A DNA stretch of 59,827 bases from a virus (IMGVR_UViG_3300027833_000054:1-59827), one strand, 5' to 3'. Shown: positions 13,340 through 47,498, numbered from the stretch's first letter. Program-made: numbers and translations. Notes: generated from the letters alone by a model not told the origin.

Positions 13340-14048
13340 ACTAGTAAAGATTTATGATGGCATGACATTTGACATGTCTACAGGAGAAGTACTTTCTCAT
13401 GGTGATATCACCTACCATGCTGAAGAAGATATTGCACAATGTGGTGGTGGTGGCCCATCAACTCAGACGACTACCTCTGGCTTTGCCACAGAGTACAAGC
13501 CACAGATCAGTGGTATGATGGCAGATGCCAAGGGTATGTATGACTCTGGTCAGCTAGGTCAAGTCGCAGGGTTTACCCAAACAGGACTAGATGCACAGAA
13601 AGCTGGATTAGCAGCAGCTAATAACCAGACAGGTATTGCCACCAACATGATGGACATTGCCAACCAACCTGTGGATCTCTCAGGTATGAGGGCACAATCC
13701 CTATTAGATGCAAAAGGTGCTTTAGGGACTTCTCAAGGTATGGCTGGACAACGTGGTGGTCTTGGTGGCGCTCGTCAGTCTTTGAATCAAAGTGGTATTG
13801 AGAATAACCTAGCTGCTTCATTTGCTGGTATTGATCAACAAGCTCAGCAGAATCAAATGGCTAACCTTAATGCTGCTCTGGGTGTTCAGGGTCAAGGTGC
13901 ACAGACAATGGGTATGATTGGTCAGGCACAACAGGCACAGAAACAGGCTGAGGCGGACGCACCATACACAGCTCTTGCACAACAGATTGGTTTGTTCTCT
14001 GGCATTGCACCTAAGGAACAAACAACTACTAAAACTGGAGGTAAGTAA
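13332..14048 (+). CDS. DNA ejection/pilot protein
   Basis: Gly/Gln/Ala-rich with a CGGGG motif after the N-terminal segment. Confidence 0.6.
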   Translation: MSKLVKIYDGMTFDMSTGEVLSHGDITYHAEEDIAQCGGGGPSTQTTTSGFATEYKPQISGMMADAKGMYDSGQLGQVAGFTQTGLDAQKAGLAAANNQTGIATNMMDIANQPVDLSGMRAQSLLDAKGALGTSQGMAGQRGGLGGARQSLNQSGIENNLAASFAGIDQQAQQNQMANLNAALGVQGQGAQTMGMIGQAQQAQKQAEADAPYTALAQQIGLFSGIAPKEQTTTKTGGK

Positions 14049-14665
14049 TGGCTGGATTTAATCCCTTTGCCCCTCAGATGACACAACAACAGCAGCGAGG
14101 TAAGGCTCCTCAGATTCAAGGGCTTCCTACCCCTAACGTAGCTATGCATGATAAACCCGGACTTATGGAAACGGTTGGTCCAGCTGTAGCAGAAAAAGCT
14201 ATAGGTTCAGATATGGCAAAAAGTGCAGGTAACTATTTGGTTGACAGCGGTAAGGATGCATGGAGTGCTTTAACTAAGTCACCAGCATCACCATCAACCA
14301 TACCTGTCAGTGAGCTATCCAACACTATGGGTACAGCTGTTTCACCGTCAGGTATGTTTGGCGGTGCTGAAGGGGCTATGGCAGCTCAACAAGCAGCAGC
14401 AGCAAATACAGCAGCACAGGGTACAACAGCTCTTATGGGTGCAAGTCCAGCAGCTTTTGGAGGCATGGCAGCAGGAGGCGCTGAAGCTGCAATAGCAGCA
14501 GAGGTAGCTGCAGCAGCAGCCGCAGAAGCAGCAGCAGCCTCCGCATTGACAGGTGCAGCAGCAGGTACAGGTGCAGCAGCAGCAGCTCCAATGGCGCTGG
14601 CAGCAGGTCCGTTTGCTCCACTGGTACTTGGTGGAATGATGTTAGCCGCTAACTCAGGAAAGTAA
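14048..14665 (+). CDS. Ala-rich ejection protein with C-terminal hydrophobic helix
   Basis: Poly-Ala region plus AAGPFAPLVLGGMMLA; Cys-free. Confidence 0.55.
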   Translation: MAGFNPFAPQMTQQQQRGKAPQIQGLPTPNVAMHDKPGLMETVGPAVAEKAIGSDMAKSAGNYLVDSGKDAWSALTKSPASPSTIPVSELSNTMGTAVSPSGMFGGAEGAMAAQQAAAANTAAQGTTALMGASPAAFGGMAAGGAEAAIAAEVAAAAAAEAAAASALTGAAAGTGAAAAAPMALAAGPFAPLVLGGMMLAANSGK

Positions 14666-14675
14666 GGAGTATACA

Positions 14676-16457: not shown

Positions 16458-18535
16458 TGGCTGTTAATAAAAATATGCCTAAATTCTCAGGCACTAACAT
16501 ACCTAGGCCTGTTCCTGATCCAAACCAAGGTAAACTTAACTTTGATGGTAGAGGTAGGAAACCAAACCTAGCACCTAAAGTTGTCCCACCAGTTCAACCA
16601 GTTCCAGCTCAACAAGCATTAGACTTAGACAACACTGCTAAACCAAAAAATACTATACCTTCTGTAGATAAGAATGGTAACCCAAGGACTACTTTTCCAA
16701 AGGCTGCTGTAGATGATATGGGTAACAAGGTTAAACCAACTGATTACAAACAGCTTGCTAAGTTTGGTAAAGCTGCATGGAAAGCTTCTAAAATTCCTAG
16801 GGCATTAACACCTATAGGTCTTGGATCTATGGTACTGGAGGAAGCTCTTTTCCCCACAGTGTATGATGCAGATGAAACTAAAAGTGTTCTTGCTGAAGAA
16901 CAATCAGAGTTTGATGCAGATAATTTGAACTTATTAACTGCAGCACAAGACAAGGTTAATCTTTTAACAGAAGTAAATGCCAGCCCTGAGATTTTGAGTC
17001 AAGCTATATCAGATTTAGAAACTCTTAAAGCTAGCATAGACCCTGAACAATCTATCACTGAATGGGAAGATGATGTTAGGAAAGATTTAAAAACCAATCA
17101 AGATATCATTGACTCAAAAGTAGAATCTCTTTCAGATATGCCTGATGCTCTTAGACTTTCACTTAAGCCTTTATTAGAACAACGAGATGCTCTTGAAGCT
17201 AAGCTTGCTGATGCATCTTCTTGGCGTAAAAGTAAAGCTGAGACTGCTGCTGTTGAAAAAGATCCAGATGTTTCCACTATTGTGGACCTAGCTAATGATA
17301 TAACACCAGATGATATAAGTTCTTTGACGGATACTGATAAAACAGCAGTTGAAGAGGAAACTAAAACTGCGCTACAAGCTTTCTTTGATGGTACTGTCAG
17401 TACCCTTAAGGGAGCTATGTCACTTGCTGGTGAAGGTCTAGGCGATCTATGGGGTCAAAAGGCTATACGTAATGCACTTGTATACTACATGGGTGCACGT
17501 CTTATGGGATACTCTGCAAGTGGTTCAGGTATGGCTGCTGGTAATGTTCTTATTAAAGGTTGGGATAACCAAGCTGATGCAGATGCCCTTGCAGCTGAAG
17601 CTGCTACTAAGACTGCTGAGAACAATGCTATTGATATGTCTAAGACTGTTAACTATGTTGATCAGTATGGTAACTTCCAGAAGGTGTACGCATCTAAGAA
17701 CGGTAAGTTCCTGAACCATCCAAAGCTAGGTACTATCGATGTCTCCAAGACAGGATGGAGACCTGCTGCTACAGGTGAGAAGGATCGTCAGACTCGTAAG
17801 CTAGATGCAACAGACAGTGTTAATAAGATTCAAGATCAGGTATTAAATAACTTGAGATCTCAGACTAAGGATGCTGATGGTAATGGCATGTATGACGAGA
17901 ACAACGTTGGTAAAGTTACTCAGATGTTCCAAGAAGCTGGTCTGTCACAACAGATGGTAGACTCTTACACTGACTCATATGGTATTGATGGTCTTGAGAA
18001 GAGTATCCCAATGCTCAGACGAGCTATTGAGTCGTACTCATCAGCTGTTGCTGGTGGGGAGGAAGTTAAAATAGCTTCATTGATGGGACACTTAGATCGG
18101 GCAATGATAACCTCAGGTAAGACACAAGTACCTAAGTCTGTTTATCATTCAGAAGGTAAGGTAGTTGGTTCAGATTCAATGAATACACTATCAGAGAAAC
18201 TCACTAAGGTTCATCAAGTTCAGAAAGGTTATATAGATGTAGTCAAAGCTTCACCAGATCTTACAGATGATCAGAAGGAAGAGTTCATTTATTCTATGAA
18301 AACTGGAGCCACCAAAGCTGACATACTCATACAACTTAACAAGAGCTTCAATGCAATACCCCCGAACCACATGGACTTCTGGAAGAAACAGGCTAAGGAC
18401 TCCAACAAGTCCTCACCTTTCATCATGTGGCTTACATCTGTTACAGATCCGGGCAGACAGCATAGTAGTTATGAGAGTCTTAATATAAATGTATACAGAG
18501 ATCTTGGACTTATACCAAGCAATAAGAAGGAATAG
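16457..18535 (+). CDS. internal virion (ejection) protein
   Basis: 692 aa, helical, Cys-free, within the ejection cluster. Confidence 0.6.
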   Translation: MAVNKNMPKFSGTNIPRPVPDPNQGKLNFDGRGRKPNLAPKVVPPVQPVPAQQALDLDNTAKPKNTIPSVDKNGNPRTTFPKAAVDDMGNKVKPTDYKQLAKFGKAAWKASKIPRALTPIGLGSMVLEEALFPTVYDADETKSVLAEEQSEFDADNLNLLTAAQDKVNLLTEVNASPEILSQAISDLETLKASIDPEQSITEWEDDVRKDLKTNQDIIDSKVESLSDMPDALRLSLKPLLEQRDALEAKLADASSWRKSKAETAAVEKDPDVSTIVDLANDITPDDISSLTDTDKTAVEEETKTALQAFFDGTVSTLKGAMSLAGEGLGDLWGQKAIRNALVYYMGARLMGYSASGSGMAAGNVLIKGWDNQADADALAAEAATKTAENNAIDMSKTVNYVDQYGNFQKVYASKNGKFLNHPKLGTIDVSKTGWRPAATGEKDRQTRKLDATDSVNKIQDQVLNNLRSQTKDADGNGMYDENNVGKVTQMFQEAGLSQQMVDSYTDSYGIDGLEKSIPMLRRAIESYSSAVAGGEEVKIASLMGHLDRAMITSGKTQVPKSVYHSEGKVVGSDSMNTLSEKLTKVHQVQKGYIDVVKASPDLTDDQKEEFIYSMKTGATKADILIQLNKSFNAIPPNHMDFWKKQAKDSNKSSPFIMWLTSVTDPGRQHSSYESLNINVYRDLGLIPSNKKE

Positions 18536-18538
18536 AAT

Positions 18539-21500
18539 ATGCTTAGAGATGATACGATGGAGGCTTTGTCTTCTGTTTTTGAAGATTACAAAACTGGAGA
18601 TGAGGCAGGATCATCTCAAGCACCTTCCTATAGGCTTGGGGATTCCGATTGGGCTTTGATTGATGGCGATACAGCTAAGAACCTTAAGACAGGTCAACGA
18701 GTTCGTGTAGGTAACATTGATACCCGTGAGGTTGGCAGAGTTATATCAGAAGGCGCTGATGCTGGGTTTAAACATGGTGAAGTTGGTGGTGAACTGGCAA
18801 CACAATACATCTGGGATCTTGCTAACAGACATGGTTTCACAAAGGTATCCTCAGGTGACGAGACTGACACTCATGATCGTTCACTTGGTGACCTGTACGA
18901 CCCTGATGGTGTTGCTTTATCAGACATGATGCTTGCATCTGGTATGGCACTCCCCGGATACATGGGTAAGTCTAAAGAGACTACAGATCCCTATGGATCT
19001 GATGTGTATATGGGTGGTGTCTATCAACGTGAGATGCGTGATCCTAACTTTGATAAGTTATCAGATTGGGAGAAGGCTGCAAAGTTACTCAGGTCTGCTG
19101 AGACTGCACACTCTGGTGGCATACCTATCGAAAAGGTTATGGCTTTTAACATGCAAGAGTACGCAGCTAACCCAGACTTATACAAGGGTATTCGTACTCG
19201 TATAGATGGGGCTGACTCTGAGGGCATGGCATACTCTCCAATGAGTGCAAGCTGGGATGTCTCATGGATGGGTATCGGTAAAGGTTTTGATCAGGTTATG
19301 TGGAAGCTGGCTGATGAAGCTGGGTTTGAAGATACTGCAACTTACTTTGCATCTGATGTAGCCACAGCTGAGAGGGAGATGGCAGAGATGCCTATGCTCC
19401 AATCAGATATAACTAAGGTTGATTGGTCTTCTTTTGATGAATCCACAGATTACCTTGCAACTATCTTCGGGTCTTCACTACCATATATGACAATGACTAT
19501 CGCAGGTATGGCAGCTGCCCCTGTGGTTGGAGCATTAGGTGCAGGAGCTGCTGCTGTAGGCACTGCAGGTGCCCTAGGAGCAACATCAACAGGTATGATG
19601 TACACTGGCTTAGTCTTAGATGAAATGGAAGGTGACATAGGTGATAAGAACTTACCACTTGCTATTGGTGCTGGTGCATTGATGATGGTTGCTGATCGCT
19701 TAGGCTTGAAAGGTATCATAGGTCCTAATCAGTTTCTCACTGGCAGTGGTAAGGCAGAACTTATAAAACACTTTACCGCCAAGGGTATGACAGAAGCTGC
19801 TGCTGAGAAGCAGATAGCTTCAATGGCTAAACTAGAGCTTGCTAAACTATCCAAAGATGGTTTTAAGTTTGCTCAAGATCAAGTAGTCAAGGGTGCTTTA
19901 TTTAAGAGGGTTGCTGGTCAGCTTTCAAGAGGTGCTGTCTTTGAAGGGAGTACGGAACTACTTCAGGAAATGACACAGTACACAGCTGCTGTGCTTGGCT
20001 CTGATAAAGAGTGGAACTTCGATGAAGTTGAGAACCGTATGATAAACGCAATAGCTGCTGGCGGTATCATGGGTGGTGCATTGTCAGTGCCCAAGACTGC
20101 ATTTGATGTAGGTGATTGGAGTTCAACTGCTGACTATTTAGATCCATCTAAGGCTGACAGGTATAACACTAAGTTTGATTATGCCGAAGAAGAAGAACTT
20201 AAGAGGCAGGGTAAGGTTCGTTCTAATGATGAATGGGCTGATGATCTACAGGCTTCTGCAAATGTTCGTGTTGAGAAAGCTTCCTTGGATAGTAAAGGTA
20301 AGGGTGGATCTGCATACAACCAAGACGGAAGCCGTAAGCCATCTAACGATAGCATGATGGAAGAAGCTGCAAACTCACACAGGAATAATAACCCCGAGGG
20401 ATTCCTTGGAGCTAAAGATATCTGGGCATTCATAAAGAACCCCCAGAACTTCTTCAGGTCTTCTGCATCACGGGCAATGATTAAGCTGGCTGAGGTTGAC
20501 TCTGAAGCTGCTAGATTATTAAGTGTTTTTGGTTACACAAGGCATGGTATCTTCCACGGAAGTAACTTTGCAGAGTACCAAAGGGTTAAGCAAGCCTCAC
20601 ATGAAACTCTTTCAGGTAAAGCAGTTGATAACTATAAGAAGTTTGACAGTGACCCACTGAGTAGTTCCACAGCTAAGCAAGCTTATGCATCTGATATGAT
20701 TAATGCTTTCTACAAAGAAGTGTTAGCGCCTATCACAGGTCGTAAGAACCGAAAAGGTGTGAAGACTATGGGTGTACGTCAGGCTATGTCTAAGATCAAC
20801 TGGGATAAGATAGACCCAAAGTATCTTAAAAACAGGGAAGCCTTAGAAAGTTCGTTGATCAAGTACGAAGCAATGCTTAACAGAGTATTTGAAGAGACTA
20901 ATGAAGTTAATGCAAAGGCCAAGAAGAGTCTTATCCATAACCTTCAAGACTTTATGTTCAGACATAAGGGTTTCAAGCGTGAGTACATAGATGCTAACAA
21001 GGCTAGGTTCATTCAGTTACTTTCAAAAGAGTATCGTATGTCACACACCCAAGCAACTAAGATAGCTGATAACATCATCAATGATACAGTCTTAGATGAC
21101 AACAAAGAGTTTAACGTGATGGAGGGTGGTATCTCACCATCTGAATATGAATCACGTACACTTGGACTCTCTGACAATGCACTCTTTGATGAGTTCCTTG
21201 AGCAAGACTTCTTCAATAACGTTGAGGAAGTGTCTCGTATGTCTTCACGATATCAGACTCATATGAAGTTCCTTGGTCGTAATGGTGAGGTGATGGATCA
21301 GGCTTTCCGTAACCTATACAGAGGTCTTATGGTTAAAGCAGGTACTGATACTGAACGTCAGGCAGAAGCTAAGGCTCAGTTCGATGAAGCTGCATTCCAT
21401 GTACGTAATCTTATCAATGCTGAGTCAGGTAACTACAAACGTATAGACAGTTACTACTTAAAGACAGCTCAGAAATACCTTACTCTTCTTACTGCAATGC

Positions 21501-22861
21501 AAGGCTTAGGTCTGGCAGCTATCTCCTCTTTCCCTGAGGTTGGATTACTGTTTCATGGTGTGCCACGTAAAGTCCTTGTTGATAACATAGGTCTTGCAGG
21601 TTACCAAGCTGGTAAAGCCCTTGCGTCTTACGCATCTAACCTTGGTGAAATCACTAGGGTATCTGGTGCAGCTGAGAAACTAGGGCTTAAGGATAAGGCT
21701 AATTCAAAAGAGGAACCTGTTGCACGTTCAGTCAAAGATCCTCGTAGGATGTTTGCAGGATCCCCTGAGACTATTGTCCAGAGGGTAGGCCTTAGTCTCC
21801 AAGAGACAGGGGCAGCAACCACAACAGGTATGGTTGAAACTAACCAGCTGACTAAGCATATTGCAGACGCATTCTTTAAGTCTAACTTCTTACAAGATCA
21901 GACACAGATGCACCGTAACATACGAGCTGCATTCTTTAATGACTTCTTGATTGATAAAATGGATCTCATAATGAGTTACAGGGGTAAGGAACCAACACCT
22001 GAACTTATGGAATCACGTAAGATGCTTAAGGACTTAGGTATTGATGTTGAAGCAATGACCCGTATCTCTAACCAGATGCTGGGTCTCCCTGATATCTCAA
22101 GCCTTACGCATGAAGATACAATGCGGATGGAAGAGTTGAATAAGAAGGTTAAAGATGGGCGTTCGCTCACAGCTTCTGAGAAAGCTTCATTCACCCGTAT
22201 CAATAATTTCTTAAAGTCTAGATCTGGTTGGGATGGTTTGTCACAAGCTGATCAGTCTACATGGGAACGTAACTTCTTGACAGGAGCTGGTCGGTTTATC
22301 AACCAAGCAGTGCCTATGCCAGATGCATTCAACAGACCTATACCATATAGTAATCAACATCTAATGTTACTTACTCAGTTTAATGGATATATCTCATCGT
22401 TTACTGCTAACCAGTTACCACGTTTGTGGGATGGTCTTAAGTACTCTAAGGGATTACGTTACTCAACCTTTGCTTCAGCAGCTACAATGCTGTTCATGGG
22501 ATTCCTGTCTCAGGCTATGAAAGACGAGCTTAAGTATGGAGAACCATCACCCTATTTGACAGACAGAGAAAAGGTTTTACGTATGATCTACTCTTCAGGA
22601 CTTATAGGCACTGGTGAGCGTATCATAGGTAGTCCAATGCTACTACCACTTTATAGTAGCAGTAGTAGAGACTTTACAGAGTGGACGTGGAATAACGTTG
22701 CAAGTGAAGCAGCTGCAGCAGGAACTGTTGAGAGATTCTACAGGATTGCTGAAGGCTACTTTGAAGATGATGATGCTAAGATGATGAAAAGTTTCTATGG
22801 AAGTCTACCGTTTTTAGGCCCAATGAAACATAGACTATATGAAGTTACTCAATGGAAATAA
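18539..22861 (+). CDS. large internal virion protein with N-terminal SNase (thermonuclease)-like domain
   Basis: IDGDT...VRVGNIDTRE...DTHDRSLG...MLASGMA matches SNase motifs; hydrophobic Gly/Ala helices; 1440 aa, Cys-free. Confidence 0.7.
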   Translation: MLRDDTMEALSSVFEDYKTGDEAGSSQAPSYRLGDSDWALIDGDTAKNLKTGQRVRVGNIDTREVGRVISEGADAGFKHGEVGGELATQYIWDLANRHGFTKVSSGDETDTHDRSLGDLYDPDGVALSDMMLASGMALPGYMGKSKETTDPYGSDVYMGGVYQREMRDPNFDKLSDWEKAAKLLRSAETAHSGGIPIEKVMAFNMQEYAANPDLYKGIRTRIDGADSEGMAYSPMSASWDVSWMGIGKGFDQVMWKLADEAGFEDTATYFASDVATAEREMAEMPMLQSDITKVDWSSFDESTDYLATIFGSSLPYMTMTIAGMAAAPVVGALGAGAAAVGTAGALGATSTGMMYTGLVLDEMEGDIGDKNLPLAIGAGALMMVADRLGLKGIIGPNQFLTGSGKAELIKHFTAKGMTEAAAEKQIASMAKLELAKLSKDGFKFAQDQVVKGALFKRVAGQLSRGAVFEGSTELLQEMTQYTAAVLGSDKEWNFDEVENRMINAIAAGGIMGGALSVPKTAFDVGDWSSTADYLDPSKADRYNTKFDYAEEEELKRQGKVRSNDEWADDLQASANVRVEKASLDSKGKGGSAYNQDGSRKPSNDSMMEEAANSHRNNNPEGFLGAKDIWAFIKNPQNFFRSSASRAMIKLAEVDSEAARLLSVFGYTRHGIFHGSNFAEYQRVKQASHETLSGKAVDNYKKFDSDPLSSSTAKQAYASDMINAFYKEVLAPITGRKNRKGVKTMGVRQAMSKINWDKIDPKYLKNREALESSLIKYEAMLNRVFEETNEVNAKAKKSLIHNLQDFMFRHKGFKREYIDANKARFIQLLSKEYRMSHTQATKIADNIINDTVLDDNKEFNVMEGGISPSEYESRTLGLSDNALFDEFLEQDFFNNVEEVSRMSSRYQTHMKFLGRNGEVMDQAFRNLYRGLMVKAGTDTERQAEAKAQFDEAAFHVRNLINAESGNYKRIDSYYLKTAQKYLTLLTAMQGLGLAAISSFPEVGLLFHGVPRKVLVDNIGLAGYQAGKALASYASNLGEITRVSGAAEKLGLKDKANSKEEPVARSVKDPRRMFAGSPETIVQRVGLSLQETGAATTTGMVETNQLTKHIADAFFKSNFLQDQTQMHRNIRAAFFNDFLIDKMDLIMSYRGKEPTPELMESRKMLKDLGIDVEAMTRISNQMLGLPDISSLTHEDTMRMEELNKKVKDGRSLTASEKASFTRINNFLKSRSGWDGLSQADQSTWERNFLTGAGRFINQAVPMPDAFNRPIPYSNQHLMLLTQFNGYISSFTANQLPRLWDGLKYSKGLRYSTFASAATMLFMGFLSQAMKDELKYGEPSPYLTDREKVLRMIYSSGLIGTGERIIGSPMLLPLYSSSSRDFTEWTWNNVASEAAAAGTVERFYRIAEGYFEDDDAKMMKSFYGSLPFLGPMKHRLYEVTQWK

Positions 22862-22876
22862 TTGGAGGTAAACCCT

Positions 22877-25800
22877 ATGGCTGGTAAGTATACAGCTCTA
22901 AAGCAAAGTGGACCTAAGAGAGGTCTAAGCAGTGATACTGCTGATGCCCTTATGAGGGCAGGTGTGTTTGATACTGCACCTGAACAAGTAGGCCCCGAAG
23001 GGATTGCCCCTTTTAGCTCATCCCCACAAAAGCAACTACACATACCCGGAACAGAACGAGGTGGGCCAGTACCCGAAGGTGTCCAATGGGGTGGTGTTGA
23101 CACTGCCCCTACAGACATTGATCAAAGGGTTGCACCTGATCCTAATCAGACCAGTATGGATTTCGGTAATGAACCAACAGAGTACATGCAACCTAACCTT
23201 ACTCCTATGGAGCTAGAACAAAAGCAGATGGAGATGGAAGCACCTCAGTCACTTCAACAACAGTTCCAGTTAGGTAGTTCATCACCAGAGCTAGATTCTG
23301 GCTACTTAGGTCCTCAGGATCTTATGAAGATATGGGGTCCTATTCATGGCCCTGTTGTTGCAAGGTCTTTAGTGGGGCTTAAGAATGACTTTGATCTACT
23401 AGGTACTGCCAGATCCTTTGATAACACAGACAGGTTCCCTGACCCTGTGGAAGCTAAGACTGAGTACGAAAGTGGTCTTGGATTAATACAGAAGGGTGTG
23501 GCCAGTGTATTTGATCTTGACATTGGGTTCCTTAAAGCACCTGAAGAAGGTCAGGCAACCTTAGATCAAGATGGAAGGTATGCACTGACACAAGAGTCTT
23601 TGTTCGTAGGTCCTCAGGGACTTGATGCATCTGTTGTTTCTAATGACAACAGGGTGTACCGTATGGACCCTGACTACCTTATCAATTCGTTTGTAGTAGT
23701 GGAAGCTATGCTTGACAACAGTGGTTCATTCATACCACAAGAGGTCATTGATACACTACCCGAAGATGTTATGAAGCAGATTGGTATACTGGACGCTGCA
23801 AGTGAGAGTCAGGCAAGGACTGTTGTTGATATTGGTAGGTCTGTGTCTGATGCATGGCAGGGTTTCCGTCAGGTACGTGAAGGTGGTATGGATACCCTAG
23901 TTGACCCTAAGTTGTTTAAAAGGTTCTCAAGAGAAGCTAATCAACTCATAGGTTTCAATGCACTACATGCTTACAAGGAAGCCAACCCATCCTATGTTGA
24001 TGCTGTTGGAGAGATGATAGGCGGTAAGGCTCAACCTATACTGTATAACCTAACACCTACAGGTCGTAAGGCACTACAGTTACGTAGTAGTCAGGTATCC
24101 CCACCTAAGTTTAGAGTACCTCCTATTATCGGGGAGACCTCTAAGGACGGTCAGCCTAGGTATGCTTCAAGTACACGTACCAAGAAGACAACTGGTGCCC
24201 AGTATGATATGGGTCAGGTTGATGTTATCACTGATGCAATCAAGTTCTACTCTGATGTTAAGAGTGTTGTTGGAGGTATCCGAGGTAAGGCTGCATTCGG
24301 CTTTGGTATATCTGCATTAGAGGAAGCATCTTCTGTTGACCTTACTGAAGGTGTACCTAACAACCACCTTACTTTTGTATCAGACTTCTTTGATGTTGGG
24401 CATAAGCGTATTGATAAGATACGTAACATACCCGTAGAGATTGAGTATCAACTCAACGAAGCAAAGAAGAAGCTTGCAGATGCACGTAGATACTCTCCAA
24501 ACGATGGTGATAATATCTTATTGATAATGGATGTCAAAACTCTATCTGATTTCTTAGAGCTTGCAAGAACCCCTGAGTGGCAGAATGGTATGTATAAGAA
24601 ACATGCCACCAACCAACTGGAAGTTCTTAATGCGTTAGCTCACTACAAGAATGACCAGATAGGTTTTACCTTTCAACGTCAGTTAGGTAATACACGTGTC
24701 ACTATGCATCAGCACCACATAAGCCCTCAGAACCACAAGATGGTACGTCAGGTGCTTGGTTCTCCACATCTCTACAGTATCAGGCCCATGTCTAATACAG
24801 ATGAAGAGTTTGGTGTCGTGGTATCGATAGCTTCTTTCCTTCTTAAGGTAGGTGGTTTGAAACCTGATGTGGTGTACCGAGATACAATCAAACGTATTCA
24901 ATCTGGTAATGACCCCGAGCTTAAATCCCTTGAGGCCATAGGTACCGAGGTTGGTCATTGGTTGCTAGCATTTGAAGATGCTAATGCTGTAAGAGACCTT
25001 AAGCAACTTGAGTCTACACCTCAGGGTGTCATGGGTGTTGATAACTTACTTCGTAATGCAGAGCTTGAAGACTTCAAAGCAATCTTAGCTGACCTTTCAC
25101 AGGCCACTAGGGACTTTATAGATGCCAATGCCAAAGCTCATCCTGATGAGTTCATAAATGTATTAGAGGCTACTACAGAGCTTGCACGTTACATGCAATC
25201 CTATAGGTCTGGTAAACCGTATACATCACAGATGCGTATGGTTGCACAAGATGGTATTGCTAATGGACTTGCAGGTCTTATGGCTCAGTTAGGTCAGGAA
25301 CATATGATGCATCGTGTTGGTGTATACAGACGTAAAGGATCCCCTAGGATATTGGCTAAGTTTAAAGGAATTGCAGGTGACCCACGTGACTTACTGAAGC
25401 ATAACTTATTGACAAACCCTACCTCCGAGATAGGTAAAGCTAGTCCTGAGAATGCAATGAAGCTCACAAGGTTGGTTAAGCTAGCCACTGAGGATAAGAA
25501 GAACTTCCTTAAGCCTCCTCTTATGACTTTTGGTTATGGTCAAGAACTAAATAGCATGAAACATTATGCTGTTAAGGCAGTTATATCAAACCCAAACTCA
25601 GAGATAGGTCTTCTTGCTGGTGAAGTAGGTACTGACAAGGCAATAAATATTCTTACTGATTCACTTAAAGATAATATTTTAGCTACTGTAGGTTCTGATG
25701 TTGTTAACTATGTTGGTATGCTTAAGAGTTATGTGAAAGTCGCTGGGTTTGTAAATGAACCTATCATCTACTCACAACCAACAGGTCAGCAAACGTCTAT

Positions 25801-26686
25801 CAGTGGCACTGTTATGACTGAAACTAGGTTAGCGTCTGCTGCTGTCACTCGTACTCGTAAGAGGAATGAGAAAGGTCAGTTCTTTGATGTCACTAATAAG
25901 AAGAAGTTTGTATCACGTAACAAGGACGGTATTTATATTAGTGAAGGTGGTACCAGTAAGTCTGCTGTTACATCAACGTATGACATAGAGACCTCAGCAT
26001 TGTACGAGAGGAATGGTGTTGCAGGTTTAGGTGCAAGTCAGGGTGTATTAGCTCAGACTACTATTGGTTTTGATGCTGCATCTGTTGTTGCCTTAGTCAC
26101 TGGTAAGTCCCTTGCTAAACTTCGTGCTGCTCAGAATGGAAGAAACCCCTACTTGATACCTGTCTATGATGAGATCATAACAGATGCAGGTTCATTTAGG
26201 TCTGCGTATAAGGCTATAAACGATGCTTGGTTAGACACAACATTAGACTATGACATCATAGGTGAGATGCAGAAAGGTATCCGTGAGGCTACTCAAAGAG
26301 GTCTTGCTAACCTACGTGCAGCGGCAGAAGGTAATCCTTTAGGCTTCCCTGCAGACCCTAACTATTCCAAGTATGTTTATAGTGAGATGATGGGTATGGG
26401 CAGTGATAGTTCTATCTACTCTTCTGAACTTAAGTATAGGTCTCTTAACTATGTGAATAGCCTTGCCAGTAAAGCTGAGGGTATGATTGAGGAACCTTGG
26501 AATCTTATCACAAACAAGGATCTATACCAGATATCACTTGCAGTTCTTAACGATAGTGGTGTGAAGAACCTTGCGAAGTCCTTTGAGAAACTAAGGTTAC
26601 GTGCAAAGGAAGGACGTAAGCGTATCAGAGCTAAGGCTAAGGATGTACACCAGTATACTTTAGATTCATTACGTGAAGCTGATTAA
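22877..26686 (+). CDS. putative virion-encapsidated single-subunit RNA polymerase (compact N4 vRNAP-like)
   Basis: Motif A QDGIANG, motif B KNFLKPPLMTFGYG, motif C IPVYDEI in the correct order; TRVTM...SPQNHKMVR upstream; no Cys; last gene of the ejection cluster; GGAGG RBS before ATG 22877. Confidence 0.8.
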   Translation: MAGKYTALKQSGPKRGLSSDTADALMRAGVFDTAPEQVGPEGIAPFSSSPQKQLHIPGTERGGPVPEGVQWGGVDTAPTDIDQRVAPDPNQTSMDFGNEPTEYMQPNLTPMELEQKQMEMEAPQSLQQQFQLGSSSPELDSGYLGPQDLMKIWGPIHGPVVARSLVGLKNDFDLLGTARSFDNTDRFPDPVEAKTEYESGLGLIQKGVASVFDLDIGFLKAPEEGQATLDQDGRYALTQESLFVGPQGLDASVVSNDNRVYRMDPDYLINSFVVVEAMLDNSGSFIPQEVIDTLPEDVMKQIGILDAASESQARTVVDIGRSVSDAWQGFRQVREGGMDTLVDPKLFKRFSREANQLIGFNALHAYKEANPSYVDAVGEMIGGKAQPILYNLTPTGRKALQLRSSQVSPPKFRVPPIIGETSKDGQPRYASSTRTKKTTGAQYDMGQVDVITDAIKFYSDVKSVVGGIRGKAAFGFGISALEEASSVDLTEGVPNNHLTFVSDFFDVGHKRIDKIRNIPVEIEYQLNEAKKKLADARRYSPNDGDNILLIMDVKTLSDFLELARTPEWQNGMYKKHATNQLEVLNALAHYKNDQIGFTFQRQLGNTRVTMHQHHISPQNHKMVRQVLGSPHLYSIRPMSNTDEEFGVVVSIASFLLKVGGLKPDVVYRDTIKRIQSGNDPELKSLEAIGTEVGHWLLAFEDANAVRDLKQLESTPQGVMGVDNLLRNAELEDFKAILADLSQATRDFIDANAKAHPDEFINVLEATTELARYMQSYRSGKPYTSQMRMVAQDGIANGLAGLMAQLGQEHMMHRVGVYRRKGSPRILAKFKGIAGDPRDLLKHNLLTNPTSEIGKASPENAMKLTRLVKLATEDKKNFLKPPLMTFGYGQELNSMKHYAVKAVISNPNSEIGLLAGEVGTDKAINILTDSLKDNILATVGSDVVNYVGMLKSYVKVAGFVNEPIIYSQPTGQQTSISGTVMTETRLASAAVTRTRKRNEKGQFFDVTNKKKFVSRNKDGIYISEGGTSKSAVTSTYDIETSALYERNGVAGLGASQGVLAQTTIGFDAASVVALVTGKSLAKLRAAQNGRNPYLIPVYDEIITDAGSFRSAYKAINDAWLDTTLDYDIIGEMQKGIREATQRGLANLRAAAEGNPLGFPADPNYSKYVYSEMMGMGSDSSIYSSELKYRSLNYVNSLASKAEGMIEEPWNLITNKDLYQISLAVLNDSGVKNLAKSFEKLRLRAKEGRKRIRAKAKDVHQYTLDSLREAD

Positions 26687-26703
26687 ACATAACAATAGAT
26701 AAT

Positions 26704-26749
26704 AAAAAAGAAAGCCCCCAAGGAATCCAATTAAGGATCCCAAGGGGGC
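26704..26749 (-). terminator. intrinsic terminator of the replication arm
   Basis: A-tract followed by GCCCCC...GGGGGC hairpin, i.e. hairpin plus U-tract on the - strand. Confidence 0.8.
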
Positions 26750-26751
26750 GT

Positions 26752-26792
26752 TACCCTCAGGTATACATTACGTATACTTGGGGGTTATTTTA
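26752..26792 (+). terminator. intrinsic terminator of the structural arm
   Basis: ACCCTCAGGTATAC-ATTAC-GTATACTTGGGGGT hairpin followed by TATTTTT. Confidence 0.8.
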
Positions 26793-27044
26793 TTACTCAT
26801 CTTTGGTAGCATCAGCTACAGTCATTCGTCCTGATTCTCGTTGAGCTTCAGCATGAGCCATAGCTTCTTCTTCTGAGAGACCCTCAGCCAGTGCACCTGC
26901 GTAGTTATTATCCCAGACTTTACTAAGGATAGCTTCATTGATCTCAGGTGTATAGGCAAGGGCTGGGTCAAGATTAAACATCTCAACGTACTCCATATCG
27001 TCAATACCCGGAACTATATTGTAGGACTTCTTTTCATTACTCAT
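26793..27044 (-). CDS. hypothetical acidic protein
   Basis: 83-aa ORF, last gene of the - arm. Confidence 0.6.
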   Translation of the reverse strand: MSNEKKSYNIVPGIDDMEYVEMFNLDPALAYTPEINEAILSKVWDNNYAGALAEGLSEEEAMAHAEAQRESGRMTVADATKDE

Positions 27045-27369
27045 CTTTTACAAATACTCCATCTACCATACGACCCGTGCGTACGTTAATTTTATTATAG
27101 GCTTCCTCTAAACATTCTGTCAGAGACAAACCCCATAGGTTCGCTTGGATGGCTAGGGTCACCAGCACATCTCCCATCTCATCTCGTACTCGATCTACAT
27201 CACCTTCATGTATCTCCTTAATCATCTCTTGAGATTCTTCTGAGAACTTGAGCAGCTGTTTACTTCTCCTTTCCACAAGATCTTTATGTTCAAAGATATC
27301 TCCAAGGATACCCTTGCGGTTACCCCAATCAATCACATTGTTTTCTAACTCTTCAAAGATCATATACAT
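27037..27369 (-). CDS. mazG: MazG-like nucleotide pyrophosphohydrolase
   Basis: KFSEE..E...DEMGDVLVTL...CLEEAYNKI..RTG.MVDGVFVK. Confidence 0.85.
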   Translation of the reverse strand: MYMIFEELENNVIDWGNRKGILGDIFEHKDLVERRSKQLLKFSEESQEMIKEIHEGDVDRVRDEMGDVLVTLAIQANLWGLSLTECLEEAYNKINVRTGRMVDGVFVKDE

Positions 27370-27563
27370 TACTCCTCCCCTTCATCAGGATCTATAGAGT
27401 CTTGAGCTATAGATAAGAATACAAAGTTAGCAGATGCTTGAAGCACACCCAGCATAGCTACGTTAGTCATCTTGCCGTTGTACTCTTGTATTAAATCGTT
27501 TAAGTCTTGAAGCATACTGTTTTCAGATGCATACTTTTCGGGGAATTGTGTTACGTTACTCAT
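27369..27563 (-). CDS. hypothetical protein
   Basis: 64 aa, MSNVTQFP start; AAGGA RBS. Confidence 0.6.
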   Translation of the reverse strand: MSNVTQFPEKYASENSMLQDLNDLIQEYNGKMTNVAMLGVLQASANFVFLSIAQDSIDPDEGEE

Positions 27564-27573
27564 ATAATTATCC

Positions 27574-29820
27574 TTAACAAAAGAAATAGTCAGAAGATAT
27601 GATCTCAGATATATCTAAGTCACCAAGCTCTGGTTGTTTAAGTTCATAGCCCTCTCGGGTTTCTAGTAGCATCTCTTCTATAGCAGTAAAGAAGTTAGTG
27701 CTGTTGTACATCATAGCAAATTGCCACTTGGTGTGGTCAACAAGTTTATTCACATCACATGAATGGGTCGAAAAAGAATCATGTATAGCTCCAAAGTCTC
27801 CAGAGAAACTCTGAATAACTTTAGCCATGTGCGCTGCGTCCATTGAGTGGACAAAGTTAGGTGAGCATCCAGATGCAAACGATCTCCTACATGGCAACAG
27901 ATCGCCATTGGAAGTGATGTAAGGTATCTTAATGCTGTGACCTATCTGACCAAGACCACGGATGGTACTGCGTACAGTGATGTTCTTCTGCCTCCACACT
28001 TCATACAACACTGGGAATCCTGAGGGAGTTGTCCAACGTGTACATGTCTCACCTGTTGATAAGATATGGTCAGTCATCTTCTGTATAAACTTCATGGTCT
28101 TTAAGGGTCCTACGCATGTGTCATTGATTGCAAGTATTAATTGCTTTGACAGAGGGGTACAGTCATCTTCAGTGATATTGTACATCTTATCATAGCCTTC
28201 AACCTTACAGTCGTAGTACATGTTAGCAGCTATCTTTTTCTGACCAGCTGAGTAAGCCCTTGTCATGGAGCCACGTTTAGCTATCCCTTTCCTGATAGCT
28301 TTCATTGGTATGTTACGTTCAGCAAACCACTCAGGCATCCTGTCGATAAGACGTTTAGCCACTTGAACATAGAAGTCTTTCTGTATTTCGCTTGGTACTA
28401 GGGACACAAGCTCACCAGCTTCTTTGTCTTTAGAGATAGCTGCCAGATGTTGCCAACCATTATTACTCCCGTCAACCGGGATAGGTGTACGACTCATGTG
28501 TACTTTATTATTTAGTACAGCATTGTTATAACCTGCCACATCTAAGCAACATGCAAGAAAGCTAACGGGCTTTTCTGCTTCTGTCCTGAAGCTTTGTCCA
28601 TCCGCTAATTGGTTTATCCAAGTCAGGTTGTTTAGGGTCCACAACTCTCGATCCTTTAGGGTCATCTTGTCTACTGAGATTGTGGATAATCCTTCGTCTT
28701 GAAGATAAGTTTTGTAGTCCGCTGTCGCCCATTCGGGTAGTTCCTCCAGTTCATATGATTGATTATAAGAACAAGCTGTATGTATGCACAACCACCTGTA
28801 TCCCTCAGTGTCCATAGCTTTTGCATAAGCAAACTCAAAGAGTCCTTTAGATACATCAGACCCTTGGAAGTTTAGGAATGGCTCAGTGTAGTACACACGT
28901 CCACGATAGTCACACTCTACCATCTGATAGAAGTCACGTAGTCCTATGGCATGTACCTTAGCCATGACAAACTTCATCTCTATAGCTTTTGATTTAGCTT
29001 TTATAGACTCATCTTCAAGATCTATGAACAATCCTAGGTTAGTCTCTAAGGCTTTGGCAACTGTACTGTTGAGTCTCCAAGGTGTTTGCTGTAGCTTGTT
29101 AAGGGCAGTGATAAAAGGTGCTCCTATAAGCTGCTTAAAGTCTTCCTCTGAACTCATACGCTTTATGTATGGCCTCTTGGTGAACTCATTACGCAATGAC
29201 ATGATGTCTTTTGGGGGTGTGAAAGACGTACCTATAAGCGTACTCTTTATATACTCAGGTGGTAGGTCTCCAAGGGTAGCCCATGTGCTTAGCAACTGTA
29301 TAATGTACGGTGCACGAAACCCTTTGTACTCTCTTTCAATATGGATATAACCCAGTTGAAAGAAAGCTTCTAGGTATAGGTCACCTACTGCCAGAATCTC
29401 TTGATGGTTAGTGTTTAGTACACCTAAAGCAGACAGCACCTGTAAGCCTATCACAGACGATGTGACGGTTAGTTTAAAGGGGCTAGCTGATGACCTTCGG
29501 GACTTCTGATAAGCTGCCACAGCACCTGCTACGGCCCTTACAGATAGCTTCTCGTAGCTACATCCATATGGGATCATTGAAGAGATCAATCTGGCCCCTT
29601 CTGGGGGCCTCCCACGGAACGTATTACCCTCACATCTTTCCTTGATATACTCTGTTATCTTTTCTATACCACCTGAGTTATCCAGTGTACTCGAGGAAGT
29701 CCTCTTGTCCTCTGAGTCGGTTGGTTCTGGTGTCGTAGTATGCTGAACCACAGTCTCCAGTTCGTCCTGTGAATCGTGACTTAAGTACTCGGAGTTTAAT
29801 TGTGTTTCTTTCATCTTCAT
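27574..29820 (-). CDS. T7-like single-subunit DNA-directed RNA polymerase (start uncertain)
   Basis: DYRGRVY, VDGSNNGWQH (A), RKGIAKRGSMTRAY (B), PNFVHSMDA and IHDSF (C), ends YFFC. Confidence 0.95.
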   Translation of the reverse strand: MKMKETQLNSEYLSHDSQDELETVVQHTTTPEPTDSEDKRTSSSTLDNSGGIEKITEYIKERCEGNTFRGRPPEGARLISSMIPYGCSYEKLSVRAVAGAVAAYQKSRRSSASPFKLTVTSSVIGLQVLSALGVLNTNHQEILAVGDLYLEAFFQLGYIHIEREYKGFRAPYIIQLLSTWATLGDLPPEYIKSTLIGTSFTPPKDIMSLRNEFTKRPYIKRMSSEEDFKQLIGAPFITALNKLQQTPWRLNSTVAKALETNLGLFIDLEDESIKAKSKAIEMKFVMAKVHAIGLRDFYQMVECDYRGRVYYTEPFLNFQGSDVSKGLFEFAYAKAMDTEGYRWLCIHTACSYNQSYELEELPEWATADYKTYLQDEGLSTISVDKMTLKDRELWTLNNLTWINQLADGQSFRTEAEKPVSFLACCLDVAGYNNAVLNNKVHMSRTPIPVDGSNNGWQHLAAISKDKEAGELVSLVPSEIQKDFYVQVAKRLIDRMPEWFAERNIPMKAIRKGIAKRGSMTRAYSAGQKKIAANMYYDCKVEGYDKMYNITEDDCTPLSKQLILAINDTCVGPLKTMKFIQKMTDHILSTGETCTRWTTPSGFPVLYEVWRQKNITVRSTIRGLGQIGHSIKIPYITSNGDLLPCRRSFASGCSPNFVHSMDAAHMAKVIQSFSGDFGAIHDSFSTHSCDVNKLVDHTKWQFAMMYNSTNFFTAIEEMLLETREGYELKQPELGDLDISEIISSDYFFC

Positions 29821-31306
29821 CTTCTGCCACTAAGTTACGAGAGAATGTAATTATATCAAAGCTGATCTGTTTAATCGAGCCTGAACCTTTGATGTCATCA
29901 ATAGATGATAGGTGGCCCTCTTCAAAGGACCTACCTTGTGACTTCCTAAGGTGACTGATTAACCCTAGCCATACGTTATGCTTCTTGACTATCTTAAGTA
30001 AGTCAGACATGACTGAATCTATGGCTTCGTTACCTGTCTTTCCATCAGCCCCTTCAGATACAGCGATGGTGATATGATCAAGAATGAGATACTGGCACCC
30101 AAGCAAGCATAGGTTTTCGATTTGGTCAATGAGACTAGAATCTGAAACAGCTCCATTGTGGTCAAGTAATATGAGGCGTTCATTTCCAAATACTCTTTCA
30201 AATGCCCTACGCTCTTGCTCAACAGTCGGGTTTGTAGGAGTAAACATCTTGATAAATTTCTCTGCAGAATCTCCAATGCTTTCTTCAAGAGACACAAGGC
30301 CAATCGATTCATCGGTGTTATCCTCCAATTCTAGTATGATCTCTTTGATCATTGTTGATTTACCTGAACCAGTTCCAGATGTGAATAAGACTATCTCACC
30401 CTTACGCATACCATCTAGCTTATCGTTAAGACCTTCAAGACATTTAGGGTATGGGATAGACTCAACAGATTTACGTTCAACGTATGCCTCCCAGATAGCT
30501 TCACCACGTACAATAGCTGCAGGTGTGTAGCTTCTTGCACTAAACACAGAGCTTATGATCTCAGATGGGTTAGCTATCAGAGCATCACAGGGATCATTGG
30601 AAGACAGGGATGCTACCTTAGTTTTATCCCAACCAATTATCTTAGCTGCTTCTGCTACTGCTTTTTCTCCAGCTTCATCTTGATCAAACATTAAGATGAC
30701 TTCCTTGAACGATCGTAACCAATCTCTGTTAGCTACAAGTATCTTCATGTTAGATGAGGATGGCAGGGATACCACAGGGTACACCTTCTTGTACTTGTTA
30801 AGCATAGCTTGCTGTACTGCAATAGCATCTAGCTCACCCTCAGTTATGATCACCTTGAAACCACCGGGTTGGAACTTAGACTGACCAAACAGTTCAAGCT
30901 TAGCGTTCTTGAGGTCACCTACAACTCGGAACTCTTTAGGCAGTGTACGTTTCTTATACGCAACTATCTTACCCTTGACTGTGTATGGGTAGTAGTGTGC
31001 ATTAACTGTACCATTAGAGTCATAAGATACTTTCATATCGTACTCATCACATGCAGTCTTAGTCAGACCACGTTCACGTACACCTGCACTGTCATAGTTA
31101 CTTATATCTTGAAGTGAATCGCCACTCATATCATACTCTCGTTGGGTATTGGGGTTAAACTTTGACACTACTGTGTCATCATATTGATCTAGGAATGCTG
31201 GCTTGTTACATGCAAAACATTTACCTCTTCCATTAGACCATAGTGCTACTGCATCTGAAGACCCACAATGTATACATGGGTAGTGCTTAGTGAATGTTGC
31301 ACCCAT
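29678..31306 (-). CDS. DNA primase-helicase (T7 gp4-like)
   Basis: Zn finger CIHC...CFAC; TOPRIM ITEGELDA and FDQDEAG; Walker A SGTGSGKST; LDHIT; KGSGSIKQ; KSRFTG. Confidence 0.95.
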   Translation of the reverse strand: MGATFTKHYPCIHCGSSDAVALWSNGRGKCFACNKPAFLDQYDDTVVSKFNPNTQREYDMSGDSLQDISNYDSAGVRERGLTKTACDEYDMKVSYDSNGTVNAHYYPYTVKGKIVAYKKRTLPKEFRVVGDLKNAKLELFGQSKFQPGGFKVIITEGELDAIAVQQAMLNKYKKVYPVVSLPSSSNMKILVANRDWLRSFKEVILMFDQDEAGEKAVAEAAKIIGWDKTKVASLSSNDPCDALIANPSEIISSVFSARSYTPAAIVRGEAIWEAYVERKSVESIPYPKCLEGLNDKLDGMRKGEIVLFTSGTGSGKSTMIKEIILELEDNTDESIGLVSLEESIGDSAEKFIKMFTPTNPTVEQERRAFERVFGNERLILLDHNGAVSDSSLIDQIENLCLLGCQYLILDHITIAVSEGADGKTGNEAIDSVMSDLLKIVKKHNVWLGLISHLRKSQGRSFEEGHLSSIDDIKGSGSIKQISFDIITFSRNLVAEDEDERNTIKLRVLKSRFTGRTGDCGSAYYDTRTNRLRGQEDFLEYTG

Positions 31307-43896: not shown

Positions 43897-43915
43897 GTAT
43901 GTATATCCTTTTAGA

Positions 43916-46779: not shown

Positions 46780-46803
46780 TGTGTTTACCTATTGGTTTAT
46801 ATG

Positions 46804-46824: not shown

Positions 46825-46849
46825 TTCTCTTAAGCACCTGATTTGTTGG

Positions 46850-47496: not shown

Positions 47497-47498
47497 GA

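Follow-up and report, generated by a model that had tools for sequence, protein, structure and literature searches.

The stretch of DNA considered here, called the window in what follows, is the whole of the 59,827 bp record IMGVR_UViG_3300027833_000054, a marine phage recorded in IMG/VR as a complete virus (CheckV 100%). At the end of a run of large genes on its plus strand is an open reading frame (ORF), P0001, and it is near certain that its product is an RNA polymerase (RNAP) of the single-subunit kind, predicted to be active, of the lineage of the virion RNA polymerase (vRNAP) that phage N4 injects into its host. A reading made from the sequence alone (the sequence-only reading) had placed an ORF of about 1270 amino acids (aa) at 22877-26686, with the catalytic motifs A, B and C of the T7 superfamily in that order, and this is borne out, with 1269 aa, 0 cysteines (Cys) and each motif within 10 nucleotides (nt) of the position given for it. 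The features of the gene, together with the second polymerase gene that faces it, of which the sequence-only reading made no mention, are as follows; the motif names and the residue numbers of N4 are those of the N4 literature.

22877-26686, plus strand: gene of P0001, 1269 aa, 0 Cys, ATG at 22877 and stop codon at 26684-26686, homologous to the polymerase domain of N4-type vRNAPs
24668-24757, plus strand: TxxGR-type motif region, aa 598-627 (...GNTR...SPQNHKMVR), with the invariant R607 and R624; family consensus GR...NPQ..K.VR, aligned to TRVGR...NPQSAKLVR of N4
25241-25267, plus strand: motif A, VAQDGIANG, from aa 789, with the catalytic aspartate D792; aligned to VEADGVTNG of N4, with D792, G793 and G797 invariant
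25499-25540, plus strand: motif B, KNFLKPPLMTFGYG, from aa 875, with K879 and Y887; aligned to RGIAKNPLTITIYG of N4 and helical in the model
26156-26176, plus strand: motif C, IPVYDEI, from aa 1094, with the catalytic aspartate D1098; aligned to LKIFDG of N4
27574-29820, minus strand: canonical T7-like RNAP, 748 aa, 15 Cys, convergent with the polymerase ORF (PF00940 E 1.2e-51, 176 bits; phrog_414 E 7.7e-104)

The mechanical ORF call begins at a TTG at 22862, and GGAGG is found 8 nt upstream of the ATG at 22877; from the sequence it is likely that the gene begins at this ATG with its Shine-Dalgarno sequence rather than at the TTG. Between the stop codon and the convergent minus strand genes, at 26700-26790, there is an A-rich run and an inverted repeat GCCCCC...GGGGGC, which is probably a bidirectional terminator.

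Fold and relationship to the N4 enzyme

The AlphaFold2 model of P0001 (aa 71-1269, input alignment of 64 sequences) has a pLDDT of 84.4 and a pTM of 0.86, and has the single-subunit RNAP fold. Here D792 belongs to a beta strand (model residues 721-723) and K879 to a helix, and D1098 is at the turn that joins the strands of model residues 1023-1026 and 1029-1032. When the PDB was searched with this model by Foldseek there were 72 matches at E ≤ 1e-3, and among the matches listed all are single-subunit RNAPs, those of T7, of N4 (the mini-vRNAP) and of yeast and human mitochondria, with E values of about 1e-13. The T7 enzyme 1s76_D is matched at E 3e-13, with a TM-score normalised to the target (TMt) of up to 0.53 for the T7 RNAP family; the N4 mini-vRNAP is matched at E 4e-13 for 3c3l_A, with a TM-score normalised to the query (TMq) of 0.41 and about 1280 columns, the largest coverage of the query, and at E 3e-12 for 2po4. 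A search of BFVD returned T7-like RNAPs and models of segments of N4-type vRNAPs, and with them the product of the middle ORF of Shigella phage pSb-1, of 1453 aa (V5UQ52, E 3e-11, TMq 0.41).

P0001 belongs to a large family, with 169 cluster representatives (clustered at 50% identity) found at E ≤ 1e-3 by exhaustive phmmer, 94 of them at E ≤ 1e-10, and nearly all members are of 1100-1300 aa. An alignment of 80 sequences has a mean column identity of just 19%, and within it R607, R624, D792, G793, G797, K879, Y887, D1066 and D1098 are invariant; the two arginines are also invariant in a set of 40 sequences, and D1098 in sets of 40 and 64. The family consensus at motif A is ExDG(K/I)TNG, with AQDGIANG in P0001 having alanine in place of the glutamate; a motif of this form, ExDGxxxG, served as a filter for vRNAPs in a survey of N4-like metagenomic viruses, as set out in part of that paper (PMC10654107). 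Among PHROGs, P0001 itself matches phrog_414 'RNA polymerase' (E 6e-8 over aa 708-1011), as do 14 of 40 family members, and 3 of the 40 match phrog_2206 'virion RNA polymerase'. No match was found among 50,697 phage records, either by tblastn of P0001 and of P0069 and P0047, two distant members of the family, or by megablast of 18000-30000.

The relationship to N4 is clearest when profiles are compared. Ten vRNAPs of the Schitoviridae (N4 and nine others, 3022-3523 aa, translated from GenBank records) were made into a profile, and HHalign aligns a 40-sequence profile of the P0001 family to it with a probability of 98.9% and E 1.8e-17 over 697 columns. The aligned span runs from 259 to 1146 in P0001 and from 1139 to 2004 in gp50, the vRNAP of N4, which is inside the mini-vRNAP region, and identity is about 15% over the aligned columns. 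The TxxGR and NPQ..K.VR block, motifs A and B, the segment before motif C and motif C itself (IPVYDE against LKIFDG) are all in register, and the N4 motifs that the sequence-only reading had named fall into place column for column, as VEADGVTNG, RGIAKNPLTITIYG, LKIFDG and NPQSAKLVR of gp50; its assignment to a T7-superfamily RNAP of mini-vRNAP size stands with the fold and with the aligned part of gp50, and the structure prediction and Foldseek search that it had proposed match both the N4 mini-vRNAP and T7 RNAP. The strength of the alignment is seen only with the ten-sequence profile, as against the single N4 mini-vRNAP sequence only the TxxGR/NPQ motif is aligned (E 0.007).

Comparison of the family profile with a profile of 60 T7-like RNAPs encoded in the same genomes gives a probability of only 9%, with E 0.0037 over 65 columns, and the vRNAP profile compared with the same 60 gives E 1.8e-5. 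The family is close to the vRNAP profile and barely matches that of the T7-like enzymes, therefore P0001 is a relative of the polymerase domain of the N4 vRNAP and not a diverged copy of the RNAP encoded next to it.

Cysteine avoidance and gene order

The absence of cysteine is not confined to P0001, which is the last of five consecutive ORFs on the plus strand that are free of it. The sequence-only reading had described five such late genes in a row, and the ORFs from 14048 to 26686 do contain 0 Cys in 4199 aa.

14048-14665, 14676-16457, 16457-18535, 18539-22861 and 22877-26686, plus strand: the five Cys-free ORFs, together 4199 aa, 0 Cys
14048-18535, plus strand: candidate small and medium ejection proteins of 205, 593 and 692 aa, 0 Cys, with a role suggested by position and composition only
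18539-22861, plus strand: 1440-aa Cys-free candidate large ejection protein, of the kind of IVP-D (internal virion protein D) or gp16 (phrog_6958 'virion structural protein', E 1e-11)

Elsewhere in the window, 35 Cys are found among the 6952 aa of the other plus strand ORFs (0.50%) and 103 among the 5935 aa of the minus strand ORFs (1.74%). At these two rates a stretch of 1269 aa would be free of cysteine with a chance of 0.0017 or 2e-10, and one of 4199 aa with a chance of 6e-10 or 1e-32. The avoidance is found across the family, with 116 of 125 full-length representatives free of cysteine (13 Cys in 148,932 aa), compared with none of the 60 neighbouring T7-like RNAPs (750 Cys in 44,327 aa). 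It extends to the homologues of the upstream proteins, where every one is Cys-free (44/44 for the 1440-aa protein, 12/12 for the 692-aa, 15/15 for the 593-aa and 7/7 for the 205-aa protein). The same is seen in the Schitoviridae, with all ten vRNAPs examined being Cys-free, as the sequence-only reading had it for N4, and with 0 Cys in gp51 and gp52 of N4; gp53 and gp54 have 4 and 3. The part of PMC13434306 that deals with these proteins has gp51 and gp52 as the two other ejection proteins of N4. The idea that cysteine has to be absent for passage through the tail and periplasm is credited to Kazmierczak et al. in a passage of PMC3821669.

When the family of the 1440-aa protein is compared with the vRNAP profile, HHalign aligns aa 403-521 with 323-445 of gp50, within its N-terminal domain (NTD), with a probability of 80% and E 1.4e-5 over 119 columns; the segment in common has an ExxxExxQ motif followed by a glycine-rich hydrophobic stretch. 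From sequence this may be an NTD-like segment and is a lead only. Nothing was found by HHalign between this family and the C-terminal domain (CTD) of gp50. The 205-, 593- and 692-aa proteins have no match in Pfam or PHROGs, and their families gave nothing when compared with N4 gp50 to gp54. The gene of the 593-aa protein carries a perfect 48-nt tandem duplication at 16007-16102, two identical copies that add 16 repeated residues.

The order of the genes is strongly kept. From 218 pattern matches in IMG/VR, 130 of which encode a relative, 80 loci were retained, and the 1440-aa gene is directly upstream of the polymerase gene in 63 of these, with the other 17 having at most 283 nt of upstream DNA. 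On the other side the T7-like RNAP gene is convergent and downstream in 75 of the 80, and the other five have less than 1 kb of downstream sequence, so that the order of IVP-D-like gene, polymerase and convergent T7-like RNAP is kept in every related contig with enough flank. Within the same loci the polymerase diverges far more than its neighbour, with phmmer E values of 1e-13 to 1e-110 for the polymerase and of 1e-145 to 0 for the T7-like RNAP. Internal virion proteins are described as diverging fast in a section of Hardies et al. (PMC4819975). In N4 the late operon ends with gp53, gp52, gp51 and gp50, convergent with the replication genes, and the gene of P0001 is likewise the last of its late operon and convergent with the replication genes.

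Hairpins in the early region

Far from the polymerase gene, in the early region of the minus strand, there are three copies of a small element with a GC-rich stem of 5-6 bp and a loop of GAA or AAA, which on the plus strand is preceded by (A)TACC and 4-5 A/T-rich bases. These are the only matches to the element in the window, all three are in the early region, and all have the one orientation in which the plus strand is the template for leftward transcription.

49406-49439 (49424), minus strand: hairpin 1, GGAGCC-AAA-GGCTCC (plus strand as template), candidate early promoter of the 62-aa ORF 49367-49179
49095-49128 (49113), minus strand: hairpin 2, CCCAAAAG-GAGCC-GAA-GGCTC, candidate early promoter
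48683-48716 (48701), minus strand: hairpin 3, CCCAAAAG-GAGCC-GAA-GGCTC, candidate early promoter; the ATG of the 146-aa gene 48615-48175 follows after 86 nt
49171-49154 and 48161-48140, minus strand: strong terminators, after the 62-aa ORF and after the 146-aa gene

As strong terminators follow both the 62-aa and the 146-aa ORFs, the hairpins are at the starts of units, and hairpin 2, being about 35 nt downstream of the terminator at 49171-49154, begins a new one. Sites resembling sigma-70 promoters are not enriched in the early region, with 9 found and 9.9 expected. The 146-aa protein (48175-48615, minus strand) is weakly similar to single-stranded DNA-binding proteins (SSB) of the gp2.5 type (phrog_112, E 0.002) and has an acidic tail ending in PF; by analogy it could act as E. 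coli SSB or N4 gp2 do at the N4 promoters. A second gp2.5-like single-stranded DNA-binding protein is encoded at 43426-43944 on the minus strand (phrog_112, E 8e-11).

Relatives in IMG/VR provide a test, with 11 distinct 200-nt regions upstream of homologues of the 146-aa gene, and a background taken from six genomes. A perfect hairpin in the template orientation is present in 10 of the 11 regions, 59-182 nt from the ATG, and in the opposite orientation in none, with a background of 0.0058 per 200 nt per strand, although several of these regions belong to closely related phages and do not count as independent. The hairpins are thus enriched before early genes and oriented towards them; which polymerase uses them is a matter of interpretation. 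The stems vary between genomes (GAGCC, GGGGGC, GAGGC, CCAGCC, GAGCCC and CTCCG), and what is kept despite the change of stem is the loop, which is GAA, AAA, GTA or GGA, and the 5' flank resembling ATACC. One relative has three hairpins, all with GTA loops and with three different stems. Across 13 elements both sides have changed at six of six pairs and pairing is 98.7%, a figure that follows by construction as the elements were picked as perfect hairpins, so that the information lies solely in the replacement of stems at a fixed position.

When the same rule is applied to N4, over its first 4 kb, there are exactly two matches, and both are on the template strand: GTTGC-GAA-GCAAC stands before gp1, and before gp2 there is AAGAAGC-GGA-GCTTCTT, with CATCCAAAAG ahead of it. 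They agree with the early promoters of N4, which part of PMC4496689 places upstream of gp1 and gp2 with a run of four A adjoining the start site. Under this strict rule, the only one applied, no hairpin was found in the early regions of two more distant complete genomes (G004 and G005) or of Roseobacter phage CRP-7. No dispersed promoter motif of the T7 type was found genome-wide, and nothing credible was returned by Rfam on 46500-50700.

Probable role of the polymerase in infection

The best-supported reading of these data, and one we hold to be probable, is that P0001 enters the virion, is ejected and initiates transcription at the hairpins. What points to packaging and ejection is the avoidance of cysteine in the family, the position after the ejection genes, the separate RNAP of intracellular type encoded next door and the N4-like hairpins. 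Expression of the polymerase gene, which is in last place in the ejection-protein operon, would be late, and its product would be packaged in the head along with the four Cys-free internal proteins encoded upstream. On infection it would be ejected through the tail and periplasm into the cell, where it would transcribe the first minus strand early genes from the three template-strand hairpins at 48.7-49.4 kb, in the manner of P1 and P2 of N4, with the early units including the gp2.5-like SSB. Middle and late transcription would then pass to the canonical T7-like RNAP, the gene of which is on the same strand at its far end, and this enzyme would so fill the role of RNAPII in N4. As its gene is about 20 kb downstream on that strand, some other enzyme must start transcription.

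The alternative that survives best leaves the polymerase as it is and questions the hairpins, which might not be its promoters and might instead be weak intrinsic terminators, stem-loops that stabilise minus strand RNAs, or upstream elements of double-stranded promoters for the T7-like or host RNAP; we regard this as somewhat unlikely, if deserving of serious attention. Two of the three hairpins also score as weakly terminator-like on the minus strand (5 bp, then CTTTTGGG). Read in the direction of the genes the flank consists of the hairpin, a T/A-rich pentamer and GGTAT, which resembles the TATA-GG end of T7-class promoters, and a related motif without a hairpin, AAGTACCTTATAGGA, is found before TerL and, inverted, before rIIA. 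Set against this, more distant relatives have no T run after the hairpin, the flanks there being TATAAGG, CTTGAAG and TTAAAGG, and in the window a strong terminator already stands about 35 nt before hairpin 2, with another after each early ORF. A loop and gene-side flank that are kept whilst the stems change fit recognition by a protein of structured DNA, as in N4, and the position of the T7-like RNAP gene still calls for another enzyme to initiate.

A less probable alternative, to which we would give only a minor share, is that P0001 is an active RNAP of the N4 lineage that is never packaged, and is a second intracellular transcriptase made late, for example for a subset of late genes or for the priming of replication, with host RNAP reading the early genes. 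The fold and the active site fit this equally well, and P0001 is without the terminal domains of gp50 that sections of PMC3821669 and PMC13434306 link to injection and encapsidation. Yet there is no known reason for an enzyme that acts inside the cell to avoid cysteine, which the family does and the T7-like RNAPs do not (116/125 against 0/60). The gene always ends the block of Cys-free internal proteins instead of being among the genes for replication and transcription, which are on the opposite strand, the divergence is far faster than that of the neighbouring RNAP, as it is for the internal virion proteins described in part of PMC4819975, and the lack of enrichment of sigma-70-like promoters in the early region does not favour host RNAP.

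That P0001 is a pseudo-enzyme, with the fold kept, catalysis lost and a structural part to play in a trans-envelope channel or a DNA-pulling clamp, would suit its place among the ejection genes, its extreme divergence without a sequence match in Pfam or the PDB and the alanine in place of the glutamate of ExDG, but is very improbable, as both aspartates, the lysine and tyrosine of motif B and both arginines are invariant across 80 sequences, a pattern not expected after loss of catalysis.

A number of points weigh against the reading of P0001 as a packaged polymerase that starts at the hairpins. Where N4 and most relatives carry ExDG, P0001 carries AQDG. In Pfam it matches no family at E ≤ 1, and the gathering threshold of PF00940 is not reached; no match was found in the PDB by phmmer or with an 80-sequence profile hidden Markov model (HMM), and BLASTP detects no similarity to the neighbouring T7-like RNAP, so that membership rests on profile-profile and structure comparison. 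The terminal domains of gp50 are missing, leaving the packaging and release of a free polymerase unexplained. The hairpins might just as well be RNA elements, or promoters for the T7-like RNAP, and to their terminator-like scores are added the kinship of the upstream regions and the selection of the 13 elements given above. Lastly, attempts to show that the protein in the same position in CRP-7, the sole cultured relative, is a polymerase did not succeed.

This phage, Roseobacter phage CRP-7 (MK613349), is the nearest cultured phage by portal, at 47% identity, and from 17859 to 29367 it has the same layout, with gp30, a T7-like RNAP with 14 Cys, convergent with gp33, gp34 and gp35. These three proteins are of 1235, 1368 and 1223 aa, all are Cys-free and all are annotated as hypothetical. 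In the CRP-7 paper only ORF30 is named as an RNAP, with ORF33 left as hypothetical. The 1440-aa protein has a homologue in gp34 (E 1e-24), and gp33 is in the place of P0001. Alone, gp33 aligns to the family in HHalign at E 0.36, it has no DGxxxG motif, and hmmsearch with the HMM of a 122-sequence family gives no match to it. Together with seven IMG/VR relatives (the set A8) it gives E 0.21 against the 40-sequence profile, and a probability of 53%, with E 1.4e-4 over 280 columns, against the 122-sequence profile; an HMM made from A8 found no member of the P0001 family. LYGK, resembling motif B, and IHDA, resembling motif C, do line up in gp33, with homology not shown by this, and its AlphaFold2 model is useless at a pLDDT of 36.5.

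Comparison with N4 and other systems

The likeness to gp50 of N4 and its 1106-aa mini-vRNAP (PDB 2PO4, 3C3L, 3C2P, 9PNQ) is in the fold, in a profile homology of about 700 columns and in the absence of cysteine. It is also in the arrangement, as in both phages the polymerase is last in the late operon, a second T7-like RNAP is present, and the first early genes come after small template-strand hairpins with loops of three purines, in the orientation of the N4 promoters P1 and P2. The differences are as plain. vRNAPs of the gp50 kind are of 3000-3800 aa (about 2800-3800 aa in the definition of the type) and consist of NTD, RNAP and CTD, whereas P0001 with 1269 aa has neither NTD nor CTD; parts of PMC3821669 and PMC13434306 say that these two domains serve injection and encapsidation in N4. 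The second RNAP is a pair, gp15 and gp16, in N4 and one chain of 748 aa here, and the genome is of about 60 kb, compared with about 70 kb, with a capsid protein of the SU10 type.

vRNAPs in pieces are on record for N4-like phages, in Alteromonas phage AltAD45 as ORF126 and ORF127 and in Shigella phage pSb-1 as three adjacent ORFs, in passages of PMC3821669 and PMC10654107, and in part of one paper such splits are viewed as possible artefacts of gene calling or read-through. In these phages, as here, the polymerase domain is not fused into a full gp50. Unlike here, they hold the pieces of a full-length gp50 equivalent in otherwise N4-like genomes, with those of AltAD45 adding up to about 3900 aa and its polymerase piece having two Cys, whereas here the protein is, as a rule, compact in a clade of its own (169 clusters, with lengths of 1100-1300 aa in nearly all). 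Compared with the T7 RNAP family (PF00940; Autographiviridae and mitochondrial enzymes), P0001 has the right-hand fold and catalytic motifs in common and differs in being Cys-free, in being encoded among virion genes and in being about 400 aa longer.

The nearest precedent in thought is that of Hardies et al. 2016 (PMC4819975), a section of which has the N4 polymerase embedded in a homologue of IVP-D (the T7 gp16 family) and internal proteins carrying domains destined for the cytoplasm. Here too a large Cys-free IVP-D-like gene adjoins the polymerase gene, with the difference that the products are separate. That section puts the homology to IVP-D in the CTD of gp50, whereas the 1440-aa protein matches a segment of the NTD only (119 columns). 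In the open-access literature searched no compact or stand-alone vRNAP was found outside the Schitoviridae, nor a report of a stand-alone enzyme of mini-vRNAP size that is typical of a distinct clade whose members also encode a full T7-like RNAP. The survey of N4-like metagenomic viruses in PMC10654107 had dropped all vRNAP-HMM matches below 2500 aa.

Implications

The injected RNAP of N4 has so far been treated as the hallmark of one phage family and as always being a giant protein of three domains. The results suggest that the N4 way of starting infection is more widespread, and exists in a simpler form. It can tentatively be proposed, as a conjecture that we would sooner doubt than defend, that a clade of marine podophages of about 55-60 kb runs the whole transcription programme of N4 in unfused parts, with an IVP-D-like protein that carries a membrane segment of the gp50 NTD type, a separate injected polymerase of about 1200 aa that recognises hairpins and a single-chain T7-like RNAP as RNAPII. 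The 3500-aa gp50 would then have arisen by fusion of such parts, and transcription from hairpin promoters by an injected enzyme would be older than the Schitoviridae and far more widespread in the ocean.

A stand-alone enzyme of mini-vRNAP size in a different and abundant marine lineage would mean that early transcription from DNA hairpins that is independent of the host is not confined to the Schitoviridae. It would offer a natural minimal enzyme of about 140 kDa in which to study the packaging of a polymerase, its unfolding through the tail and its refolding, and a handle on the evolutionary assembly of gp50. It would also add to the known single-subunit RNAPs some that are hairpin-specific and have promoter specificities of their own, which are new (loops of GAA, GTA and AAA, varied stems), possibly of use as orthogonal tools for transcription from single-stranded DNA templates.

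Other features of the genome

The remaining genes of the window are divided between the strands as follows.

Plus strand: TerL, portal, scaffold, SU10-type capsid protein, tail and fibre genes, then the run of large genes ending at 26686
Minus strand: MazG-like protein, T7-like RNAP, primase/helicase, exonuclease, DNA polymerase, ribonucleotide reductase, gp2.5-like SSB, rIIB, rIIA and small early ORFs

The capsid protein (56392-57447) matches PF17236 SU10_MCP in Pfam at E 1.4e-75, in keeping with the SU10-like capsid protein of the sequence-only reading, which was also right that the head genes do not look like those of N4, as the portal and capsid protein have no phmmer similarity to them. 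When portal, capsid protein, primase, exonuclease and SSBs were compared with their N4 counterparts by phmmer, none showed similarity at E ≤ 1. Its capsid and portal genes place the phage outside the Schitoviridae. The last ORF, 58618-59826, is open at the end of the window and contains about five diverged repeats of 105 nt (35 aa); as it runs off the record, the two ends of the record probably reflect an arbitrary cut through a genome with circular permutation or terminal redundancy. ARAGORN found no tRNA in the window.

The DNA around the early region is rich in other repeats. At 49433-49797 there are five tandem units of 73 nt, each with a hairpin, CTCAC-GAA-GTGAG in three and CTCAC-GCA-GTGAG in two, oriented like the candidate promoters and nested in a longer inverted repeat TCAGACA...TGTCTGA; close relatives have two units. 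Possibilities for this array are extra or decoy sites for the polymerase, an origin, or small RNAs. It is adjoined at 49805-49881 by about six tandem copies of an 11-nt unit, TATTACATTAG, and the region 49900-50480 is rich in short repeats like CTTAGGGA and CTTTGGGA. Lying between the early and late operons, which diverge here, the repeats of 49805-50480 may mark an origin or a region for packaging. A motif of 22-30 nt, TAATCTTTTAAGTACCTTATAGGAAC, occurs on the plus strand at 50145-50174 and 50192-50221, before TerL, and inverted at 46807-46828, before rIIA, each time pointing to the genes; its core resembles the flank of the hairpin element, and it is a candidate for a second class of promoter, perhaps for the T7-like RNAP.

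Metatranscriptomes are not used as evidence, with at most 0.21 of the sampled words of 46000-51000 present in any of 16 runs. Four runs (X1, X2, X3 and X5) were compared with 45000-52000, and gave contigs of relatives that are 90-99% similar, from which starts, strands and levels are not readable and in which DNA may be present; no contig of the four falls on 49446-49913, and this is likewise not used as evidence. Between hairpins 2 and 3 the minus strand carries, at 48828-49075 and without a convincing ORF, a tandem pair of units of about 118 nt that both end in TGCGTAACGTGCA. One of them has a tRNA-like 3' half (GGGTTCGATC...GCCA) that is not called by ARAGORN or Rfam. RNA-library contigs of relatives do fall on this stretch, and some loop back on it, which suggests that the number of units is variable.

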